Source: Candidatus Peribacteria bacterium RIFCSPHIGHO2_01_FULL_55_13
GTDB taxonomy: Bacteria > Patescibacteriota > Gracilibacteria > Peribacterales > Peribacteraceae
DNA: 51,314 nt
Assembly: GCA_001788925.1 (NCBI GenBank)
Contig: MFXS01000041.1
Span: forward strand, 1-51,314
Direction: 5' to 3'
Shown: one piece after another, positions 2,831 to 43,476 of the stretch
Layout: every line of letters begins with the position of its first letter
Numbering within the stretch: the first letter of the stretch is position 1
Notes under the pieces: generated by a model
What the model was told of the DNA's origin: nothing
What the model saw: only the letters and a program-made list of their open reading frames with translations
Database searches by the model: none
Program-made: the position numbers and the translations under genes

Positions 2831-4351
2831 ATGTCCTTTACCGTACGACGACTCAAAGAGCCTCCCAAGCGGCGTTTCCCGTGGAAACGCTCTCTCCTCT
2901 GGGGCATCACCTTCGCCCGGCCACTGCTCGGATGGTATCAGTCGTGGAAACGCCGACAGGAGGAAGAGCACCAGACGATGCTTCTGAAGCGCATCCTCTT
3001 TGTCCTCATTGCCGTCTTCCTCGCACTCTTTTTGATCGCGGGAACCGCCAAGGCGCTCGTGGGGCTGAAATCCTTGGGCCTGAAGACGCTGGTAAGCGTG
3101 ACCGGAGGAGAGCTGATGCACGATACAAACGGTTACACCAACATCCTTCTTCTCGGCCAGGGCGACAGCGGCCATGACGGCAAGGATCTGACCGATACGC
3201 TGATGGTGGCGAGCATCGATCCGACCCATACCCAGAGCGTGGTGGTGGTATCACTCCCCCGTGATCTTTATTTCCTCGCGACCGACAAGATGGGCAAGGG
3301 CCGCATCAACAGCCTCTACCGCGATTACAAGGGATACCTGCGCGGCACCGGGATGGAAACGCCCGCGGCTTCCAAGGAAGCGATGCGCGAACTCTCTCTG
3401 GAGATCGGCCGGACACTGGGAATGGAGATCCATGGCGTCATCAAAGTAGACTTTGAAGGATTCGTGGACGCGGTGGACGTGATCGGCGGGATCGATGTCA
3501 CGGTTCCCGAAGACATCGTGGATACGGAGTACCCGGATGAAAACTACGGATACGAAACCTTCTCCTTGCGTTCGGGCCCGCAGCATTTGGATGGGGCGAC
3601 GGCACTCAAGTACGTCAGAAGCCGGCACAGCAGCAGCGACTTCAGCCGTTCCGCCCGCCAGCAGCAGATCATCATCGCGATGGCGGAGAAGTCCAAGACC
3701 GAAAAACTCCACCGCGACGTGGGCGCCATCACGGAACTCCTCTCGGTGATGCGCGAGCACGTGGAGACTACCTTTGGTATCCGCGAATTGATCGCCCTTG
3801 GAGGAGTGGCCGATAAGATCGACCGCACACGGGTGGTGACGATGCAACTCTCAGACAGAAACGGCCTCTATAACTCGCTGCCGCAGCCCGGAGGCTTCCT
3901 CTATGCCCCGCCCAGAGAACTCTTCGGTGGCGCTTCGGTGCTGCTCCCCGTCTCGATCCCCGAGTACCCCGTCACCTGGAAGCAGGTACAGGCACTTTCC
4001 AAGATCCTCTTCGCGAAGCGTTCGATTTATCTGGGCAATCCCCAGATCAGCATTCTGAATGCCGGAGCAAAGCCGGGCTCCGCGCGGGCACTGAGTAATG
4101 AACTGGTCCGCTACGGATTCGAAGTCGACTACGTCAACAACGCCGAGACACTTCCGGATCAGGAGAAATCATGGATTTTTGAGCGATCAGCCGAAGCACA
4201 AACCCCCGAAGCAGCCTTCTTTGTAGATCTGCTGAAGCTGCCGGCGCAAGCAAGTACGGAACTGACCTCGGAGGAACTGCGGACAGTGACGATCGTGCTG
4301 GGAAAAGATTATACGTATCAGCCGATGCAGGATCTCCTGCCTGCGCAGTAG
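2831..4351 (+). CDS. LytR-CpsA-Psr (LCP) family cell-wall transferase with LytR C-terminal domain
   Basis: N-terminal TM helix; NILLLG, TDTLMV, SLPRDLY, ALKYVRSRH and DFSRSARQQ motifs; C-terminal ILNAG...IVLGKD. Confidence 0.92.
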   Translation: MSFTVRRLKEPPKRRFPWKRSLLWGITFARPLLGWYQSWKRRQEEEHQTMLLKRILFVLIAVFLALFLIAGTAKALVGLKSLGLKTLVSVTGGELMHDTNGYTNILLLGQGDSGHDGKDLTDTLMVASIDPTHTQSVVVVSLPRDLYFLATDKMGKGRINSLYRDYKGYLRGTGMETPAASKEAMRELSLEIGRTLGMEIHGVIKVDFEGFVDAVDVIGGIDVTVPEDIVDTEYPDENYGYETFSLRSGPQHLDGATALKYVRSRHSSSDFSRSARQQQIIIAMAEKSKTEKLHRDVGAITELLSVMREHVETTFGIRELIALGGVADKIDRTRVVTMQLSDRNGLYNSLPQPGGFLYAPPRELFGGASVLLPVSIPEYPVTWKQVQALSKILFAKRSIYLGNPQISILNAGAKPGSARALSNELVRYGFEVDYVNNAETLPDQEKSWIFERSAEAQTPEAAFFVDLLKLPAQASTELTSEELRTVTIVLGKDYTYQPMQDLLPAQ

Positions 4352-25053: not shown

Positions 25054-26469
25054 ATGCGTCCTTCCTTTATCGCCTCCCTCTTCATCGGCACATTTCTTTT
25101 TGCGACGTTCCTTCTGCAATGGTGGCAACTGGCCTCCTATCCTCTGTGGATCTGGACAGTCCTCGTCCTCTTCGGACTCGTCGGTCTCCTTGGTCTCAGT
25201 ATTCGCCGCCATTGCACCGGCCCCTGTCTGGTAATCGCACTCAGCATCGCTCTCTCCTTATGGACCGTCTCCCATGCCCACAAGAAATTCCAAGCACAAA
25301 CTCTTCCTCAATACACCGCGCAGAACATCACCCTCCTCGGTACTGTCACGGGAGGTCCATCCGGCAAACCTCCCGCTGCACTCTACCCCGTGCGCGTCGA
25401 AGCGATGGATAGCTCGGGAACATTGATCCCTGTAAGCGGTTCTGTGCTCATAGAAGACTACGGCGGCTGGCCGGAGTACCACATTGGAGATCGCATCCGC
25501 GCGGAAGGAATGCTGGAACTTCCCAAGAACTCCGAAGATTTCGATTACGGCCAGTATCTCCGGCTGCAGGGAATTTCGACGATTCTGAAACGGGCAAAAC
25601 TATCCCCTGTATCTGTAGGGGCATTGCATGCAATGCCCCTACCCCTCCGCCTACGCAGGATGCTGCAGTCGTCCAAAATCTGGTTCGAATCCCGCATCAA
25701 CCTCCTCTTTCCCGAGCCCGAAGCGGCACTCATCACCGGACTTCTTACTGGGGAACGGCGGGGGTTCAACAAACGCGTGCTCGATGATTTTGCGACAACC
25801 GGCCTCACACATCTTGTGGCGATCTCCGGGACGAACGTGACGATCATCATCGGCATTCTCGGCGGACTCCTCTTCTGGCTGCCGCTCAAGTGGCGATTTT
25901 TTCCGCAAGTGATCGCCATCGCGCTCTTCACGCTCTTTGTGGGTGCTTCGGCATCGGTTGTCCGCGCTTCGGTGATGGGAATCCTGGGGCTGACCGCTCT
26001 CGAACTCGGTCGCATCCGCGATACACGTCTTGCGATCCTGTGGACGGCCTTCTTCATGACGCTCTGGAAGCCGGAGCAGCTCTGGTGGGACGCGGGATTT
26101 CAATTATCGTTCGCCGCCGTGATCGGCGTGACGGAGATTGGCCCGCGATTTCAGAAAGCATTCTCCAAAATTCCCGAAACGCTCGGCCTCCGAGACAGTC
26201 TCGCGATGACACTTGCCGCGCAGATCACGACGCTTCCGGTAAGTATCCTCACGTTCGGCCGTGTTTCGCTGATTGCACCGCTCAGCAATATCCTTGCAGC
26301 GCCGCTCGTTCCAATTGCGATGCTCTTTGGATTTCTGGGGACGATCGCAAGCATTGTGTGGTTCCCGCTCGGGCAGCTCGTAGGATTTGCGGGGTATGGA
26401 GCGGCGGAGTGGATTACGGGGACCGCGAGTATGTTGGCAAAGGTGCCCTTTGCGGCAGTGGGATGGTGA
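25054..26469 (+). CDS. comEC: ComEC/Rec2 competence protein (OB and Competence domains, no beta-lactamase-like domain)
   Basis: GLTHLVAISG.N, SASVVRASVM, DAGFQLSF. Confidence 0.92.
   Translation: MRPSFIASLFIGTFLFATFLLQWWQLASYPLWIWTVLVLFGLVGLLGLSIRRHCTGPCLVIALSIALSLWTVSHAHKKFQAQTLPQYTAQNITLLGTVTGGPSGKPPAALYPVRVEAMDSSGTLIPVSGSVLIEDYGGWPEYHIGDRIRAEGMLELPKNSEDFDYGQYLRLQGISTILKRAKLSPVSVGALHAMPLPLRLRRMLQSSKIWFESRINLLFPEPEAALITGLLTGERRGFNKRVLDDFATTGLTHLVAISGTNVTIIIGILGGLLFWLPLKWRFFPQVIAIALFTLFVGASASVVRASVMGILGLTALELGRIRDTRLAILWTAFFMTLWKPEQLWWDAGFQLSFAAVIGVTEIGPRFQKAFSKIPETLGLRDSLAMTLAAQITTLPVSILTFGRVSLIAPLSNILAAPLVPIAMLFGFLGTIASIVWFPLGQLVGFAGYGAAEWITGTASMLAKVPFAAVGW
25615..25642. repeat. Perfect 28-bp GTAG-type REP palindrome inside comEC
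   Basis: GTAGGGGCATTGCA-TGCAATGCCCCTAC. Confidence 0.8.
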
Positions 26470-28120: not shown

Positions 28121-28195
28121 GGCCCCATCGTCTAACGGTTAGGACAGCGGGTTTTCAATCCGTTAACCAGAGTTCGACTCTCTGTGGGGCTGCCA
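28121..28195 (+). tRNA. tRNA-Glu (anticodon TTC)
   Basis: Cloverleaf: acceptor GGCCCCA/TGGGGCT, anticodon TTC at 28154-28156, GTTCGAC T-loop, encoded CCA. Confidence 0.95.
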
Positions 28196-34174: not shown

Positions 34175-34678
34175 TTACCGTGTGATGATCGGGGCATCGT
34201 CCAACAGCAATCGCAGACTCTGAAGCCCCCGGAAAATACGGACGGAGACTGTGTTCGCATTTTCTCCGGTCTTGCGTGCGATTTCCGCCGGATGCAGTCC
34301 AAGGAGAAAACGGTCATGCAGCACCTGCCGGTACGGACGCGGCATTGTGCGAAGTTTCCGCATCGGCCTCTCGGCGTCCAGCCGGCTGTACGTCTGATGC
34401 CAGAGGTCGACTGAGGGGGCGAATCCCTCCTCCAGAAGCAGGTCGAGCGAGGCTTCCCTCTTCCGGCGCGCATGGTCGATGATGAGATTGTGCGCGATGC
34501 GGTAGAGGAAAGCGCGTTCATGGAGAATCGTGTCTTTCCGCTGCAGGCAGAGCCAGAAACGGAGAAAGGTATCCTGCGTGAGGTCTTTGGCCGTCTCACG
34601 ATCTCTGCATCGCTTGGCGCAGTAGCGGAAGATGGCGTCCTGATAGAGGTCGTGAAAGGCGATGAAATCGTGCGTCAT
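34175..34678 (-). CDS. ECF RNA polymerase sigma factor
   Basis: DLTQDTFLR.W, AFLYRIAHNLIID, EIA...G...NTVSVRIFRG. Confidence 0.9.
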   Translation of the reverse strand: MTHDFIAFHDLYQDAIFRYCAKRCRDRETAKDLTQDTFLRFWLCLQRKDTILHERAFLYRIAHNLIIDHARRKREASLDLLLEEGFAPSVDLWHQTYSRLDAERPMRKLRTMPRPYRQVLHDRFLLGLHPAEIARKTGENANTVSVRIFRGLQSLRLLLDDAPIITR

Positions 34679-38484: not shown

Positions 38485-38961
38485 TCAGCGATACAACGGC
38501 CGCACTTCAAACAGTAGCCACAGCCCGATCACGGTCCCGATGACCGTACCAATGGCACTGGAGCCGTAGCCGATGGCGATCTCGATGATAGCGGCGGCTG
38601 TGGTGATGATCGTTCCGTAGAAAATATAGTTCCAGCCCTTTTTCTGACGCTTCTTGAGTGGGCTGAACGCAAGAATCTGGAGAACTGCAGCGATGAGTCC
38701 CGCGAGGACGGAAATGACCCAAGCCACTTCAGAAATACCGCCCGTCATAAACGAGAGCGAGGCAACGGAGAGCAGGACACCTGCGGAGAGAAGGGCGATG
38801 AGGCCAAGGATTCCGAAGATGAGCGAAAGCCACGGCGCGATCGTTGCCAGGAACTCCCGAAAACTTGCGGGGAGGTGCGGCGCCTTGGCGAAGATCGGCG
38901 CAAGCCAGCCCTCGAGGGCAGCCATCTTTTTCTCGGTCGTTTTCTGGAAGTCGTTTGCCAT
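38485..38961 (-). CDS. Four-TM membrane protein, function unknown
   Basis: Four hydrophobic segments; APHLP...APW and KKGW motifs. Confidence 0.8.
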   Translation of the reverse strand: MANDFQKTTEKKMAALEGWLAPIFAKAPHLPASFREFLATIAPWLSLIFGILGLIALLSAGVLLSVASLSFMTGGISEVAWVISVLAGLIAAVLQILAFSPLKKRQKKGWNYIFYGTIITTAAAIIEIAIGYGSSAIGTVIGTVIGLWLLFEVRPLYR

Positions 38962-38988
38962 GGAAAAGAATGGGGAAGGAAAGAAAAA

Positions 38989-40326
38989 TTATTTCTTTTT
39001 ATGCGTCGCCTCGTACGTTTTGTCCATCGCCGTCCAGAATACGCGGTTATCGATGCAGAGAGGGTTTCCGCTTCCGGCATCCTTGCAATCGCCGTTTTCG
39101 AGGAGGTTTCCGTACTTCACGAAGCCCGTGTTCGGGTTGTCCTGGTACGGGTTCTCTTTGATGCCTTGTACCGTCGCCTTGTGAACCTGTTCATTGGACC
39201 AGTCGGGATGCGCCTGTGCCATGGTATCGCGGTGGCGATTGTAGGCCGCTGCCATCCCGACAAAGACTTCCTTCTGGGCGCCGTCTTTGAATGAGGTGAG
39301 TGCATGATCGACAATTCCTACGACGACAAATGCGTCACCCGCGACCGTCTTGGCGATGTCTTCGACTCCTTCCTTCAGTTTGCTGGTCGCCTCATCCTTC
39401 GCTTTGGAAATGAGCGTGTCTTTCACACGGTCGAGGCGGCCCTTCTGGAGGAAATCATTGTCTCCCTGCTGTTCCAGCATCTTCTCATACACGGTCAGGG
39501 CATCCTCGGCTTTTGATCTCTCGGTGGGAGCATCTTCGCCGATCAACTTATCTTTCAGGCGGTCGAAGAATCCTTTGCTGAGGATATCTTTCGCCGACAT
39601 ATTTTCGATTGCATCCTTGGGATCGTAACTGTCGATGAAGATCTTCTTGAGTTCCTGCAGCTTCTCGAACTTCGTCGTGACATCCTCCAGTTTCTCGCCA
39701 GATTTATCCAGGAACTCTTTATATTTCTGGAGCCCTGCCAGACGATCGGGGTCTTTTTCTTGGTCGATATCCTTTTCCAGGAGTTCCAAATACTTCTTCC
39801 AGCCCTCGTCGCCGATGCTCTTCAGATCTTCTTTTACCTTATCGTTGGCAAGCGGGTCATCGGTGCCGCCGGCTGCAGGCTTCTCTGCTGTGTCCTCTTC
39901 CTTTTTCACGTCGCAGCTCCCGGCGCCGGCATTCCACACATAACCATCACCGCATCCCTTTCCGTTCTTCGCCCACGCCGCACGGCACTGCACCTCGTTC
40001 TCGGTACTCTTGCAGTCATCCACGGAGTGATTTTTAAACGCAGCCTCGAGGCATTCTTCCTTGGAATAGCCCATAAAACTCCCCTCCACTCCTTCGCACG
40101 CAGAAGGATCGCCCGTATTACCCGCGATCAGCATGTGACATTTTTCCTGCGGAGGAGCGTATTCGATTTTGGCACAATTCTCAGGGTCGCTTTCCTGCAC
40201 CGCAACCGCCTGGTAACAGTGGTCGCTGTCCGGACCGGTCTCACAGAACACCTCCATCACATCACCGAGACAACCGCTGAGAAGCAGTGCTGCAGGAGCC
40301 AGAAGAAGGAGAGATGATCTCTTCAT
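38989..40326 (-). CDS. Cys-rich lipoprotein with helical C-terminal region
   Basis: MKRSSLLLLAPAALLLSGC lipobox; repeated C-x-rich units; ATGA overlap with the upstream gene fixes the start at 40326. Confidence 0.8.
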   Translation of the reverse strand: MKRSSLLLLAPAALLLSGCLGDVMEVFCETGPDSDHCYQAVAVQESDPENCAKIEYAPPQEKCHMLIAGNTGDPSACEGVEGSFMGYSKEECLEAAFKNHSVDDCKSTENEVQCRAAWAKNGKGCGDGYVWNAGAGSCDVKKEEDTAEKPAAGGTDDPLANDKVKEDLKSIGDEGWKKYLELLEKDIDQEKDPDRLAGLQKYKEFLDKSGEKLEDVTTKFEKLQELKKIFIDSYDPKDAIENMSAKDILSKGFFDRLKDKLIGEDAPTERSKAEDALTVYEKMLEQQGDNDFLQKGRLDRVKDTLISKAKDEATSKLKEGVEDIAKTVAGDAFVVVGIVDHALTSFKDGAQKEVFVGMAAAYNRHRDTMAQAHPDWSNEQVHKATVQGIKENPYQDNPNTGFVKYGNLLENGDCKDAGSGNPLCIDNRVFWTAMDKTYEATHKKK

Positions 40327-40763
40327 TTCTTCTTGGGGAGGAGAAGCGGAATCGAAAGAAGAATCGTCAGAAGGATCGCCACGAGGGAGCCCCACAGCAT
40401 CGGACGCGTCAGGAATTCGACGACGGCGCGGGCGATTGGAGTAAATGGTGGTTCTTCACTGAGAATCCACGCGAACACAAACCAGGGAACAACCCCGATC
40501 AGAACGACGATGGGATGGAACACTTCCACCCGGCGGATTCGAAAGAGCCTTCGCAGGAGATTGAGGATACCGATACCGATGATGGAAGGAATCGCCATCA
40601 CCGGGCCTACCGCCCACGCGCCGATGTTCATCCATTTTACGATTTCACTGTTGCCGACGCTCTCCCCCGATGGCGCAAGCATCGCAAACGCCGCCGCAGA
40701 AACCCCCGCCATCACCAGGCACATCAGGAACGGGAACCATGCCGAACCGAGGAACCGTCGCAT
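40323..40763 (-). CDS. Four-TM membrane protein
   Basis: Hydrophobic segments; translationally coupled to the lipoprotein. Confidence 0.78.
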   Translation of the reverse strand: MRRFLGSAWFPFLMCLVMAGVSAAAFAMLAPSGESVGNSEIVKWMNIGAWAVGPVMAIPSIIGIGILNLLRRLFRIRRVEVFHPIVVLIGVVPWFVFAWILSEEPPFTPIARAVVEFLTRPMLWGSLVAILLTILLSIPLLLPKKK

Positions 40764-40806
40764 TGGAAAATATTGTCGCCCTCCTGCAAGCCGGACGCAA
40801 GGTCAT

Positions 40807-40836
40807 TGTAAGAGAGGCCCCCCTCCTCCGTCTTCT
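40807..40836 (+). promoter_or_regulatory. ECF-sigma-type promoter tGTAAGA-N15-CGTCtt
   Basis: GTAAGA at 40808-40813 and CGTC at 40829-40832, in the same register as three other copies. Confidence 0.65.
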
Positions 40837-40839
40837 TGA

Positions 40840-41085
40840 GTACAAGCGACCCGCCTGCAATGCTCGGGTTGCCATCGAAGCAAATGGAGCCTTAAAAGCT
40901 CCCTAGAGGAAATTTCAATCCTCACACGATGGCATCCAGATCGACACTGCGGACGGGTTTGTTTTGAAGCGCTCCAGACCGGCAAAGCCGGACTTCGCGC
41001 TCTTATTTTATGGGTGCTCTCCTTAAGAAAAAGGAAAGTTGGAAAATCACCTATACAAAAAGCAGGGATTACTCCCTGCTTTCTG
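40840..41085 (+). ncRNA. Putative structured small RNA of unknown class
   Basis: Nested helices with G-U pairs favouring the + strand, no sizeable ORF, promoter directly upstream and terminator hairpin downstream. Confidence 0.55.
41057..41084. terminator. Probably bidirectional intrinsic terminator
   Basis: AAAAAGCAGGGA-ttac-TCCCTGCTTT. Confidence 0.8.
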
Positions 41086-41104
41086 GCTTCGAAAGTATCA
41101 GTTT

Positions 41105-41620
41105 TTATTTCTTCATTGCTTCGATGGCGGCATTGACCTTGGCCTGAAGCTTCGCCTTGGCATCGACGATACACGTATCGTGCTCAGTGCCTTTTTTGTC
41201 TTTACAGACAGCAACGGCAGCTTCAGCCTCGGTGTTCAAAGCGGCAGAGAGCTGCATCCTGAGTCCGGAGAGGAAAACACGGACACGGGCGATGGCGGAT
41301 TTACCAGCATCGCGGGCATCGTGCACGCGGGTGCGGATGGACTTGAGTGTGTCGTGCATCGTGCGACGGGCATCCTTGGTTTCCGTCTTGGCCTCAAGGT
41401 AAGCGCGGACACCGCCTTCACATTCGGCTTTTTCCTCACCGGAGAAACGGGCGCAGCGGGCTGTGACTTTGGCGTCGATATCCGCGCTGGCCGCGGAGGT
41501 GGTAACGGACGTGCTGGAATCGAGATCAACGTTGACTCCGAGCGCGAGGGATGAAGCCGGAATGGCGAGAGCGATTGCCGAAGCCGCGAGGGAAGCGGTC
41601 ATGCGATAGAAACGATCCAT
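41105..41620 (-). CDS. Secreted helical Ala/Lys-rich protein with two Cys pairs
   Basis: Signal peptide ending SLA; CARFSGEEKAEC and CKDKKGTEHDTC. Confidence 0.78.
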   Translation of the reverse strand: MDRFYRMTASLAASAIALAIPASSLALGVNVDLDSSTSVTTSAASADIDAKVTARCARFSGEEKAECEGGVRAYLEAKTETKDARRTMHDTLKSIRTRVHDARDAGKSAIARVRVFLSGLRMQLSAALNTEAEAAVAVCKDKKGTEHDTCIVDAKAKLQAKVNAAIEAMKK

Positions 41621-41680
41621 AAAAATAGGGGGAAAGAAATAGGGCAACTGGGAAAACAAAAGAACAACTGCATGCATAGA

Positions 41681-41710
41681 AGTAGACGAAGCAGCCTATC
41701 CCCTCTTACG
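41681..41710 (-). promoter_or_regulatory. ECF-sigma-type promoter cGTAAGAGGG...TTCGTCta
   Basis: Near-duplicate of the motif upstream of the sigma gene. Confidence 0.72.
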
Positions 41711-41723
41711 CGGAAAAAATGGC

Positions 41724-42869
41724 CTACGGCAGCAATCCGCGTTCGATGATCTCTTTCTGTTCTTCGACTTTCTCGCGAAGATTTTTCTCTTGTTCAGAAG
41801 AGGTGGATCCTTCAGCCACCGAAGATGCTTCTGCTGCCGCTGCACTCTCCGTACTCGCATTGCTCTGCGTGGAAGCTTCGGCGGAAGAATCTGTACTGGA
41901 GGACATATCAGCACGAGAACTCCTCGATTTCTTTTCTTGTGCAGCGGAGCGACCGTCTCTGTCCTCGTCACTCGCCTCTTCCGAAACATCCTGCGATTGC
42001 ACCGGGGTGCTGCGGGAACGGGCCTTTGCCGAACCGGAAACCTTGATGCCGATTCGGATTTCTCCCTGCACATCCGCGTTCTTGGTGGAAGAATCGGACG
42101 CGGCACGCTTGAGGATGAAGTTCGCCTCGCTGCGCGCCGCATTTCCGCGCTCACGGACAAACTGCCGCAGATGATCCTCCTCAGATTTCTTGGCCCTGTC
42201 CTCCGGCCCTCCAAACGCGGCCGGAGCGACTGCAGGCGGGAAAGACTCTTCGTACTTTTCAAAGGTGGTCGCCAGGACTTCCTGCACGGCGACGTGCGTT
42301 TCCACGGACGGAGGCGGAAGGAGCGTATCCTGAAGCGTCACCACCTGCAGGGAAATCCTGCGTTCGAGCTCCGCACGGTTCTGCGTAGTAAGCTTCCCTC
42401 TTCCGGCAAGCTGTTGCGCCTCGCGCAGGCGTCGTTCTACCTTGCGGATCTGCCAGACGGCCTGCTTCTGCGGCGTGCGGATCATCTTTTCACGAAACGG
42501 TTCCAGAACATCCACTTTAAGAGCATAGAGAGGATCTCCCGGGATCGCGGATTCGGAGGCATAGGCGAGCGCACCGCTCCCAAGCACAATGATAAGGGCG
42601 CTAAGGGCCAGTGCCGGCATCCGCAGCAGCGGAACACTGATGACCGTCCACCACGCCGAAGTCGGCTCGCGGTCCGCCTGCAGGCGCATGGAGGCAATAA
42701 GGGAGCCACGGCCCATGGCTTTCTCTTCGGCGCTGAGGGCGATGGTCGCTGCATCGTTCAACGCTATCCGTGCGAGGAGCGCACTGCGTCCTTCCTCTTT
42801 TTCATGGTCCGTGAGGCGCAATTGCTTGGCCTCGGAGAGGAGCCGTTGGAAGGCGTCGTTGCGGGTCAT
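41724..42869 (-). CDS. DUF5667-like single-TM protein, putative anti-sigma factor
   Basis: ATGA overlap with the ECF sigma gene; TM followed by AIPGDPLYALK and ERRLREA; Ser/Glu-rich tail. Confidence 0.75.
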   Translation of the reverse strand: MTRNDAFQRLLSEAKQLRLTDHEKEEGRSALLARIALNDAATIALSAEEKAMGRGSLIASMRLQADREPTSAWWTVISVPLLRMPALALSALIIVLGSGALAYASESAIPGDPLYALKVDVLEPFREKMIRTPQKQAVWQIRKVERRLREAQQLAGRGKLTTQNRAELERRISLQVVTLQDTLLPPPSVETHVAVQEVLATTFEKYEESFPPAVAPAAFGGPEDRAKKSEEDHLRQFVRERGNAARSEANFILKRAASDSSTKNADVQGEIRIGIKVSGSAKARSRSTPVQSQDVSEEASDEDRDGRSAAQEKKSRSSRADMSSSTDSSAEASTQSNASTESAAAAEASSVAEGSTSSEQEKNLREKVEEQKEIIERGLLP

Positions 42870-43378
42870 TGGGAAATAATCAGGGAACGGAGTTTTTCCA
42901 TGCCGCGGTGAATGCGGACAGAAACAACATTGGGGGAAACCTTGAGAAGGTCGGCGATTTCGCGGGGGAGGAGGCCGTCGACATACCTGAGCACGATGAC
43001 CGTGCGCAGCGGTTCTTCCATTGCATGGAGGACGGTAAGAACCTTTTCGGAATCGATGCGAACGGCGGCGCTATCGTCTTCCTCCGCCGGGGGATCGAAG
43101 CCCTTCTGCTCGCGGAGGTCCTCAAGCGATTCCTCTTTCCGGAGCTTCTTGCGGCGCACGAGGTCGACGATAAGGTTGTTGGCGACGCGATAGAGGAAGG
43201 CGCGGAGATTATCGACTTTCTTTCCCTTGGAGATGTACTCCCATGCACGCAGGAATGTCTCCTGCATCAGCTCGCGCCCCTGCTCCCGGTCGCCGAGGCG
43301 CAGGGCGATGTGCCGGAAGATGGCATCGGCATAATCGTCGTACGCCTGTAGAAATGCTTGTTCAATATTCCGATCCAT
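42866..43378 (-). CDS. ECF RNA polymerase sigma factor
   Basis: AYDDYADAIFR, LMQETFLRAW, RAFLYRVANNLIVD, EIADLL.VS.NVVSVRIHRG. Confidence 0.92.
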   Translation of the reverse strand: MDRNIEQAFLQAYDDYADAIFRHIALRLGDREQGRELMQETFLRAWEYISKGKKVDNLRAFLYRVANNLIVDLVRRKKLRKEESLEDLREQKGFDPPAEEDDSAAVRIDSEKVLTVLHAMEEPLRTVIVLRYVDGLLPREIADLLKVSPNVVSVRIHRGMEKLRSLIISQ

Positions 43379-43390
43379 GCCGAACAGTGT

Positions 43391-43420
43391 AGATGACGAA
43401 GGAGCATATGCCCTCTTACG
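43391..43420 (-). promoter_or_regulatory. Putative autoregulatory ECF promoter cGTAAGAGGG...TTCGTCat
   Basis: Directly upstream of the sigma ATG at 43378. Confidence 0.72.
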
Positions 43421-43476
43421 GAGCAGGTTTTCCAGATATTGCATAAATACAATAAATATTGTATAATATCAATAAG

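Follow-up and report, generated by a model that had tools for sequence, protein, structure and literature searches.

In the genome of Candidatus Peribacteria bacterium RIFCSPHIGHO2_01_FULL_55_13, two minus-strand open reading frames, p146 and p190, are separated by a gap (40764-41104) into which a promoter of the ECF sigma type points on the plus strand. The gap had been interpreted, in an initial sequence-only reading, as an unannotated ECF-driven non-coding RNA beside the sigma/anti-sigma locus of a CPR bacterium, raising the question of whether a stand-alone regulatory RNA is encoded here or whether the promoter and the structure behind it serve a neighbouring gene. We addressed this question in the window, i.e. 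the entire 51,314-nt stretch of contig MFXS01000041.1 that was analysed, and in the genomes of its relatives, close ones among which are recorded as Candidatus Peribacteria / Patescibacteria, in agreement with the host originally proposed. The reading that we favour, with a rough probability of 0.6, is that positions 40807 to about 41011 of the plus strand specify a self-contained, ECF-sigma-dependent small RNA that would terminate itself at a length of about 128 or 172 nt and act in trans. It builds on a promoter motif, an RNA structure, conservation, covariation, independence from the flanking genes and an inversion. The core of the initial proposal thus gains comparative support, in that promoter and stem are conserved together, the stem covaries, the unit has been inverted as a whole and it persists in genomes without p146; its placement of the RNA 3' end and its use of G-U pairs to assign the strand are not confirmed.

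The ECF sigma factor of the locus is encoded on the minus strand at 42866..43378 and matches the Pfam models Sigma70_r2, r4_2 and Sigma70_ECF, all above their cut-offs; ECF-like sigma matches number three in this genome. Its orthologues in other genomes of the genus are 98% (G002), 85% (G004) and 69% (G001) identical. The sigma stop codon is overlapped by the gene for a 381-aa protein (41724..42869, minus strand) with one hydrophobic segment and a weak DUF5667 match, which its position designates as a putative membrane anti-sigma factor. Next on the same strand comes p190 (41105..41677), a secreted-looking, cysteine-containing protein without a Pfam family that adjoins the RNA unit in every case. 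On the other side of the gap, p146 (40323..40763, minus strand) is a 146-aa membrane protein with sub-threshold Pfam matches only, which is divergent from the RNA here and lies downstream of it in G004.

The promoter pointing into the gap consists of a -35 box, TGTAAGAG, and a -10 box, CCGTC, with a variable spacer (40807..40832, plus strand). The underlying motif, GTAAGA-N14-17-CGTC, has four matches in the window, at 22383-22359 (minus), 40808-40832 (plus), 41709-41685 (minus) and 43419-43395 (minus), against a mean of 0.26 in 100 shuffled sequences, none of which reached four. The fourth GTAAGA-N15-CGTC copy that had been reported to face the ORF-less stretch on the plus strand is thus confirmed. 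Over the whole 1.17-Mb genome, the 15-nt spacing yields 14 matches and the other spacings from 10 to 21 nt yield 0-5 each; a reversed-pattern control gave 8 matches, not far below 14, so that base composition contributes to the genome-wide count. An ORF of at least 60 aa begins within 100 nt downstream in 11 of the 14 matches, and most of these ORFs have signal-peptide-like N-termini. Of the remaining three, one stands before a 53-aa ORF for a membrane peptide, another forms the second promoter of a tandem pair, and only the copy at 40808 has no ORF behind it. The same motif is found, in this genome (G000) and in its sister genomes, upstream of the sigma gene, where it would mediate autoregulation (43395..43419, minus strand), and upstream of p190 (41685..41709, minus strand; conserved in G001, G002, G003 and G004), as would be expected of an ECF regulon under autoregulation. 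On sequence grounds, the putative promoter at 40808 can be assigned to the adjacent ECF sigma factor, its motif being shared with the sigma gene and p190. Alignment of the RNA-unit promoter revealed that its -35 and -10 boxes are invariant in G002, G003 and G004 and that its spacer differs. A scan for sigma-70 promoters between 40000 and 42000 returned no sites.

Promoter geometry predicts that transcription starts at about 40839, 6-7 nt downstream of CGTC. The RNA would then open with a short 5' leader, (G)AGUACAAGC (40838..40847, plus strand), which is partly kept as AGUAC in the alignment of relatives. The leader is followed by a long irregular stem (40848..40959, plus strand) that ViennaRNA folds with GACCCGCCUGCA... 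paired with ...UGCGGACGGGUU, with GACCCG/CGGGUU closing it and a three-way junction at its tip, giving an overall Y shape. The two arms of the Y are apical hairpin 1 (40886..40902, plus strand), GGAGC-CUUAAAA-GCUCC, and apical hairpin 2 (40906..40923, plus strand), GAGGA-AAUUUCAA-UCCUC. G003 and G004 have instead GCCUC-CAUA-GAGGC and AGAGAAU...AUUCUCU at these places, so that the apical sequences differ between the subgroups G000/G002 and G003/G004 and the hairpins are present in both. Directly after the stem comes a U-tract, UUUGUUUUG (40958..40966, plus strand), which we propose as the first intrinsic terminator, and then a second hairpin, AGCGC..CCGGC-aaa-GCCGG..GCGCU with CUUAUUUUAU (40968..41011, plus strand; hairpin proper 40968-41001), as a putative back-up terminator. 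Plus-strand folds have z-scores of -5.7 (253 nt), -4.65 (175 nt) and -4.17 (131 nt). The fold originally proposed, with its long stem, two apical hairpins and CCGGC-aaa-GCCGG hairpin, is the structure that ViennaRNA gives, and every one of its stem coordinates was correct.

The absence of a sizeable ORF, also noted at the outset, holds on closer analysis, which identified no ORF of 30 aa or more lying wholly inside 40838-41011 and no conserved ORF. The plus-strand ORFs at 40670-40906, 41010-41147 and 41039-41554 begin outside the unit or are antisense to p190, and inspection of the alignment by eye shows a frameshift in G004 in the 11-codon ATG frame that starts at 40860.

Where the RNA would end required revision. 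The sequence-only reading had placed the 3' end at the hairpin at 41059-41082, which on the minus strand reads GCAGGGA-GUAA-UCCCUGC followed by UUUUUGU, a better U-tail than that of the plus strand, and lies 23 nt after the p190 stop codon; in the relatives an equivalent hairpin is found directly after p190 and before the promoter. The minus-strand U-run, the position behind the p190 stop and the counterparts in relatives identify this hairpin as the terminator of p190 and not as part of the RNA. An RNA end at about 40966 (stem plus U-tract) or at about 41010 (second hairpin) is more likely than one at 41082, with about 40966 as the likelier first choice and about 41010 failing that. All five homologues have the GC-rich closing stem with a U-run behind it, and G000 and G003 have the second hairpin with its U-run as well. 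A simple terminator scan missed the stem terminator because the loop that it encloses exceeds the 3-8 nt limit of the scan. The second hairpin is also half of a dual-hairpin repeat of about 110 nt, similar copies of which, with no Rfam family, recur at several further sites in G000 and its relatives, frequently behind genes; in G003 the full dual-hairpin element follows the RNA copy.

The strand of the RNA had originally been argued from G-U pairs, which were said to favour the plus strand. This argument fails because the core folds more stably on the minus strand in five of five homologues; for the 253-nt stretch the values are -113.3 kcal/mol on the minus strand vs -97.5 kcal/mol on the plus strand, and strand-specific wobble cells in alignment A6 are balanced at 10 vs 10. 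The plus strand is nevertheless favoured, on other grounds. In all four genus copies, the inverted one included, the side and strand of the promoter relative to the stem are the same, and a U-rich tail is found 3' of the stem on the plus strand in all five homologues, the opposite flank not being A-rich.

The region was searched with BLAST in 60 related genomes, including six other genomes of the genus. The RNA region was matched in three of these six, G002 (90%), G004 (73%) and G003 (70%), and the -35 box (40807, position 44 of the query) marks the exact start of the homology, which ends at the U-tract (40964). Taken from promoter to U-tract (40807-40966), the unit surpasses the coding DNA of its neighbour p190 in conservation in six of six pairs. 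A profile scan over genome contigs with the p190 alignment detected the same three sister species only. G005 and G006, in which the sigma matches are only ~30% identical and no orthologue is present, gave no match to the RNA region, in keeping with a link between the RNA and the sigma factor. Counting against the favoured reading, G001 has the sigma factor, the anti-sigma factor, p190 and the p190 promoter without an RNA copy, a tRNA gene following p190 there. The long stem is single-copy in this genome. A covariance model (CM) of the stem scored 127-134 bits in the four genus copies and, in a search of 151 family genomes sampled without G002 and G004, found matches in G000, G003 and, weakly at 48 bits, G167. 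The distant G167 copy carries no ECF motif, lies 18 nt after a stop codon and has a T7 run, with the look of a plain terminator; the gene preceding it has no similarity to p190 (E = 4.5). When metagenomes were scanned for a 19-nt pattern taken from the 3' arm, 25 loci came up, of which L024 and L043, G004-like, are true copies by the CM; the other 23 were rejected as chance matches or as scoring at most 14.5 bits.

Conservation and covariation in relatives had been named at the outset as a check, and both are found, the stem changing on both sides in 7 of 25 modelled pairs with 97.6% of cells paired across five sequences. The covariation score was reached by none of 500 shuffles, and slid controls gave 0-2 such pairs. 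The homologue set consists of four close sequences and one distant one, all related, and the alignment was fitted to the model; with so few related homologues and a model-fitted alignment the shuffle statistics overstate significance, and they are to be read as indicative and not as proof.

Comparison of gene order revealed that the unit in this genome is inverted. In G004 the sigma factor, anti-sigma factor, p190, its terminator, the promoter, the hairpin RNA, p146, p468 and p158 follow each other on one strand, and in the relatives generally the unit is co-directional with, and placed after, the sigma factor, anti-sigma factor and p190. G000 has the same gene order on the minus strand, except that a segment of at least 40807-41010, comprising promoter, RNA and the hairpin behind it, is inverted. 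Logan contigs from three runs of three studies (X3 record 1, X6 record 4 and X9 record 18) span both junctions with no differences, although X3 record 1 may itself be the source of the window, and the reproduction of both junctions by contigs from different studies shows that the inversion is no artefact of one assembly. Contigs of four runs from four studies contain the window orientation only and no strand-changing joints, giving no sign of a mixed population; contigs of this kind drop rare variants. The unit has been flipped as a whole in this genome. We also noted two further repeats. One, inverted and exact over 13 nt, pairs the stem (40871-40883) with the 3' end of p190 (41116-41128); it is not conserved in relatives and was treated as coincidence. 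The other, a 9-nt direct repeat, TTGGAAAAT (40763 and 41039), is at chance level by arithmetic and is not read as a target-site duplication.

What lies downstream of the unit differs from genome to genome: p146 in G004, a palindrome and then a hydrolase gene in G002, a dual hairpin, a 22-aa p146 remnant and a convergent gene in G003, and the p190 3' end, met head-on, in G000. These differing contexts, together with the inversion, are consistent with an RNA that acts in trans. Conservation in three sister species and inversion as a unit likewise suggest a stand-alone regulatory RNA.

Comparison with known RNA families, proposed together with the initial reading and covering the 6S, SRP and RNase P models, gave no family match. 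At gathering thresholds the only Rfam hit in the whole window is a tRNA at 28121-28192. With E up to 10, the interval 40600-41300 gave seven weak matches, all far below gathering scores and all rejected, the best of them, ar9, covering the p190 terminator on the minus strand with a score of 26.8 vs 45 bits. A hammerhead or other small ribozyme was also rejected, the junction strands differing between the two subgroups and no Rfam match being found, and the features of a riboswitch or cis-leader are lacking in that there is no conserved link to one downstream gene family and no Rfam match. CsrA is present in this genome; a role as CsrA sponge is unlikely because the copies in G003 and G004 do not retain the GGA motifs. 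Duplex predictions between the RNA and the p190 and sigma leaders stayed within ~1.3 sd of shuffled controls in seven of seven tests and were uninformative.

Among the closest known systems are the sigma-E-dependent small RNAs of Proteobacteria, such as MicA, RybB and MicL. Like these, the candidate would be short and ORF-less, transcribed from an ECF-type promoter and ending in an intrinsic-terminator-like structure, and it would share its regulon with envelope or secreted proteins and its locus with an autoregulated sigma/anti-sigma pair. It differs from MicA, RybB and MicL in matching no Rfam model at the gathering score or at E up to 10, in being almost entirely double-stranded, without a conserved single-stranded seed, and in coming from a genome with no detectable Hfq. 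Unlike the sigma-E small RNAs, it lies directly beside the sigma operon and is confined to one Peribacteria genus. FoxJ of Fusobacterium is a further sigma-E-dependent RNA (PMC11005410).

Two alternative explanations would deny the unit a function in trans. In one, the ECF promoter drives p146-p468-p158 and the stem with its U-tract acts in cis as a 5' leader or attenuator that tunes read-through, the copy in G000 being an inverted and uncoupled relic. The G004 layout has this form, with promoter, stem, U-tract, 75 nt and then p146-p468-p158 all on one strand, and it is probably ancestral, since G003 retains the 22-aa p146 remnant in the same place. The sequence-only reading had itself raised the related scenario of a 5' UTR for the minus-strand gene starting at 40763, which fits G004 as well. 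However, p146 is found in only two of the seven genus genomes and the RNA unit in four, which argues that the RNA is not the leader of p146 and that such a role is not a conserved one, and a 5' UTR of p146 cannot explain why the unit is kept, because its downstream neighbour differs in every genome. No same-strand gene stands behind the unit in G003 and G000, and the unit surpasses p190 in conservation in all pairs with G000, G002 or G003. Moreover, a -10-like box kept in G000, G003 and G004 lies 8 nt upstream of the p146 ATG, and in this genome no words are more enriched immediately ahead of start codons than -10-like ones, so that p146 probably has its own promoter. We consider a cis-acting leader quite improbable. 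Somewhat less improbable, though still unlikely, is that the unit is a structural DNA or RNA element without trans function, such as a bidirectional terminator or insulator, with a promoter-like motif that is weak or otherwise used. The G167 copy, directly after a stop codon and without the ECF motif, would suit such an element, as would the near-palindromic sequence, which folds on both strands and better on the minus strand, and the richness of the region in terminator-like repeats. The GC-rich closing stem followed by a U-tract and the adjoining dual-hairpin repeat family are likewise reminiscent of complex intrinsic terminators and REP-like repeats. In contrast to these, the stem is single-copy, has its own conserved promoter and is more conserved than adjacent coding DNA. 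In addition, every copy has a conserved terminator that belongs to p190 and precedes the promoter, a U-tract flanks the stem on a single side, and a simple terminator would need neither 113 nt of conserved sequence nor a precise -35/-10 pair 6-16 nt upstream.

The inversion could also be read as phase variation, with the unit as an invertible promoter switch, the window showing its OFF state and the other orientation driving p146. Invertible promoters (invertons) are known in Bacteroides and Enterobacteria, and the unit resembles them as a promoter-bearing segment of about 200 bp that is inverted relative to three sister species within an unchanged gene order, i.e. in opposite orientation relative to conserved flanking genes; two copies of a 28-nt palindrome flank it in G002 and could favour recombination. 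Unlike invertons, it has no flanking inverted repeats above chance, and the difference is one between species and not within a population. The best flanking pair in G000 (I5) is 11 nt with one mismatch, about chance in 450 nt by an arithmetic estimate, and the perfect 13-nt pair (I1) lies inside the stem and p190 and hence does not flank the unit. The contigs of the four runs show one orientation only, although rare variants can hide, each sister species shows a single orientation, and no recombinase was found among the neighbouring ORFs scanned, from 38485 to 43444. A switch of this kind is very unlikely. The same low expectation applies to a 6S-like or other decoy RNA that binds RNA polymerase or the sigma factor and feeds back on the ECF response. 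The unit does form a long, irregular, mostly double-stranded hairpin beside a sigma factor, a plausible partner of the transcription machinery, and a search of this genome with RF00013 detected no 6S RNA. Among the defining features of 6S RNA is a large central bubble. The candidate has small internal loops and an apical three-way junction instead, measures 113 nt against the 187 positions of the 6S model, has an ECF and not a housekeeping promoter and gives no Rfam 6S match over the region at E up to 10, so that the resemblance is one of overall shape only.

Under the favoured reading of a self-contained, trans-acting small RNA, release of the sigma factor by the membrane anti-sigma factor would allow RNA polymerase to start at about 40839 and to transcribe a 113-nt, almost fully paired, Y-shaped hairpin. 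Transcription would stop at the U-tract after the stem, giving about 128 nt, or at the next hairpin and its U-run, giving about 172 nt, and the product would go on to act in trans, whatever genes lie next to it. What this model predicts is thus that the unit is transcribed, where the RNA starts and stops, that it works in trans and how it does so. A search for Hfq with PF17209 gave no matches in the 97.7%-complete genome and detected the protein in control genomes. With no Hfq detected in the genome and no conserved single-stranded seed in the RNA, we infer that protein binding, or processing as double-stranded RNA, is a more likely mode of action than classical seed pairing. A bolder version, which we offer as a long shot, is that a sequence-conserved, nearly fully double-stranded hairpin of 113 nt titrates or binds, without Hfq and not by seed pairing, a protein of the envelope-stress response (such as the RNA polymerase-ECF holoenzyme, the anti-sigma factor or an RNase) and, with its promoter and terminator, forms a portable cassette that goes on working when flipped, the first candidate riboregulator under the control of a stress sigma factor in CPR bacteria.

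ECF-dependent small RNAs are of a known kind, and the RNA described here belongs to no described family and to one genus only. Word searches of open-access full texts found no regulatory RNAs described for Peribacteria or other CPR bacteria, which does not prove their absence from the literature; in a term search of PMC4736985, 'sigma', 'small RNA' and 'non-coding' have zero occurrences. If the RNA is not expressed, the finding shrinks to a conserved hairpin of limited interest. If protein binding or titration by the 113-nt hairpin proves true, it would represent a new mechanistic type of ECF feedback RNA. The natural inversion provides a rare comparative argument that promoter and RNA are one unit, and the locus, with sigma factor, anti-sigma factor, secreted protein and RNA behind the same motif, offers a compact test case for Hfq-independent RNA regulation. 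In a tiny genome of 1.17 Mb with few alternative sigma factors, a conserved non-coding gene tied to one of them is likely to matter for the envelope-stress response.

A dual-hairpin element of ~110 nt is repeated in the window's own genome (G000), in which it occurs at 40966-41010 of the window and on contigs C40 (11838-11949), C5 (162-390 and 2946-3053), C36 (8344-8389), C4 (70600-70707) and C28 (8729-8790), and it is also found at positions 1630-1735 of locus L006. The element comprises GAAAGGAAACCC..GGGTTTCC and GCGCTCCAG, followed by a hairpin that varies and covaries between copies, then by CTTCGCGC and a run of T. It is frequently located 3' of genes and has no Rfam family, and it may represent a lineage-specific terminator or a REP-type repeat. 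A perfect 28-nt palindrome, GTAGGGGCATTGCATGCAATGCCCCTAC, lies on either side of the RNA unit (an ECF-type promoter followed by a long hairpin and a U-tract) in the congeneric genome G002 (L004, 1415-1445 and 1700-1730). The palindrome is REP-like, a possible recombination substrate, and present at two to three sites in G000, including one inside the window (about 25616-25643) and one at C23:116.

Inspection of the G000 sequence revealed another ECF-type promoter with a hairpin leader, AAGTCCCCC...GGGGGACTT, on the forward strand of contig C40 (42774-42900), with a gene encoding an 883-aa secreted protein 99 nt downstream. The initial transcribed sequence at this locus is similar to that of the RNA unit. 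In G001, another genome of the genus, an apparent tRNA-like gene (L060, about 3990-4065, minus strand) follows p190, the secreted Cys-containing protein gene, at the position of the RNA unit in the sister species. In the family genome G167, the long hairpin has a distant homologue scoring 48 bits (L023, 1501-1615), located 5' of typA and 18 nt 3' of the stop codon of an unrelated 147-aa Cys-rich open reading frame. The ECF motif (GTAAGA-N15-CGTC) is absent at this homologue, a possible terminator or 3'-UTR-derived RNA.

G000 also encodes two other ECF-like paralogues of the studied ECF sigma, one in the window (34202-34669, minus strand; 44% identical to it), with a paralogue at the matching position in G004, and one on contig C4 (96703-97167; 32% identical). 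Genes downstream of the ECF motif (14 promoters) have leaders of 30-40 nt that are strikingly CU-rich directly 5' of the ATG, as exemplified by TTTCCCCC and CCCTCTCT; examples are located at 22359-22320 and 41685-41620 on the minus strand of the window, and at C37:11651 and C34:5045.

The usual anti-Shine-Dalgarno core of 16S rRNA is CCTCC. The 16S rRNA 3' tail in G000, which lies beyond the window on contig C7 (about 1152-1220), reads ...GGATGGAACATTTCCTTACC and carries TTTCC at the core position instead, so that standard Shine-Dalgarno pairing may go unused in this organism. Among 1010 open reading frames of at least 200 aa from across the G000 genome, with the first ATG taken as a crude choice of start site, GGAGG is depleted (0.5x) immediately 5' of start codons, and the top enriched 5-mers at -22..-3 (TATAC, TGCTA, CTATA, ATACT and TATAA) combine into an extended -10-like box. 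Together, this enrichment and depletion suggest that many G000 mRNAs would be leaderless or have very short leaders, a pattern with which the CU-rich leaders of the ECF-motif genes contrast.
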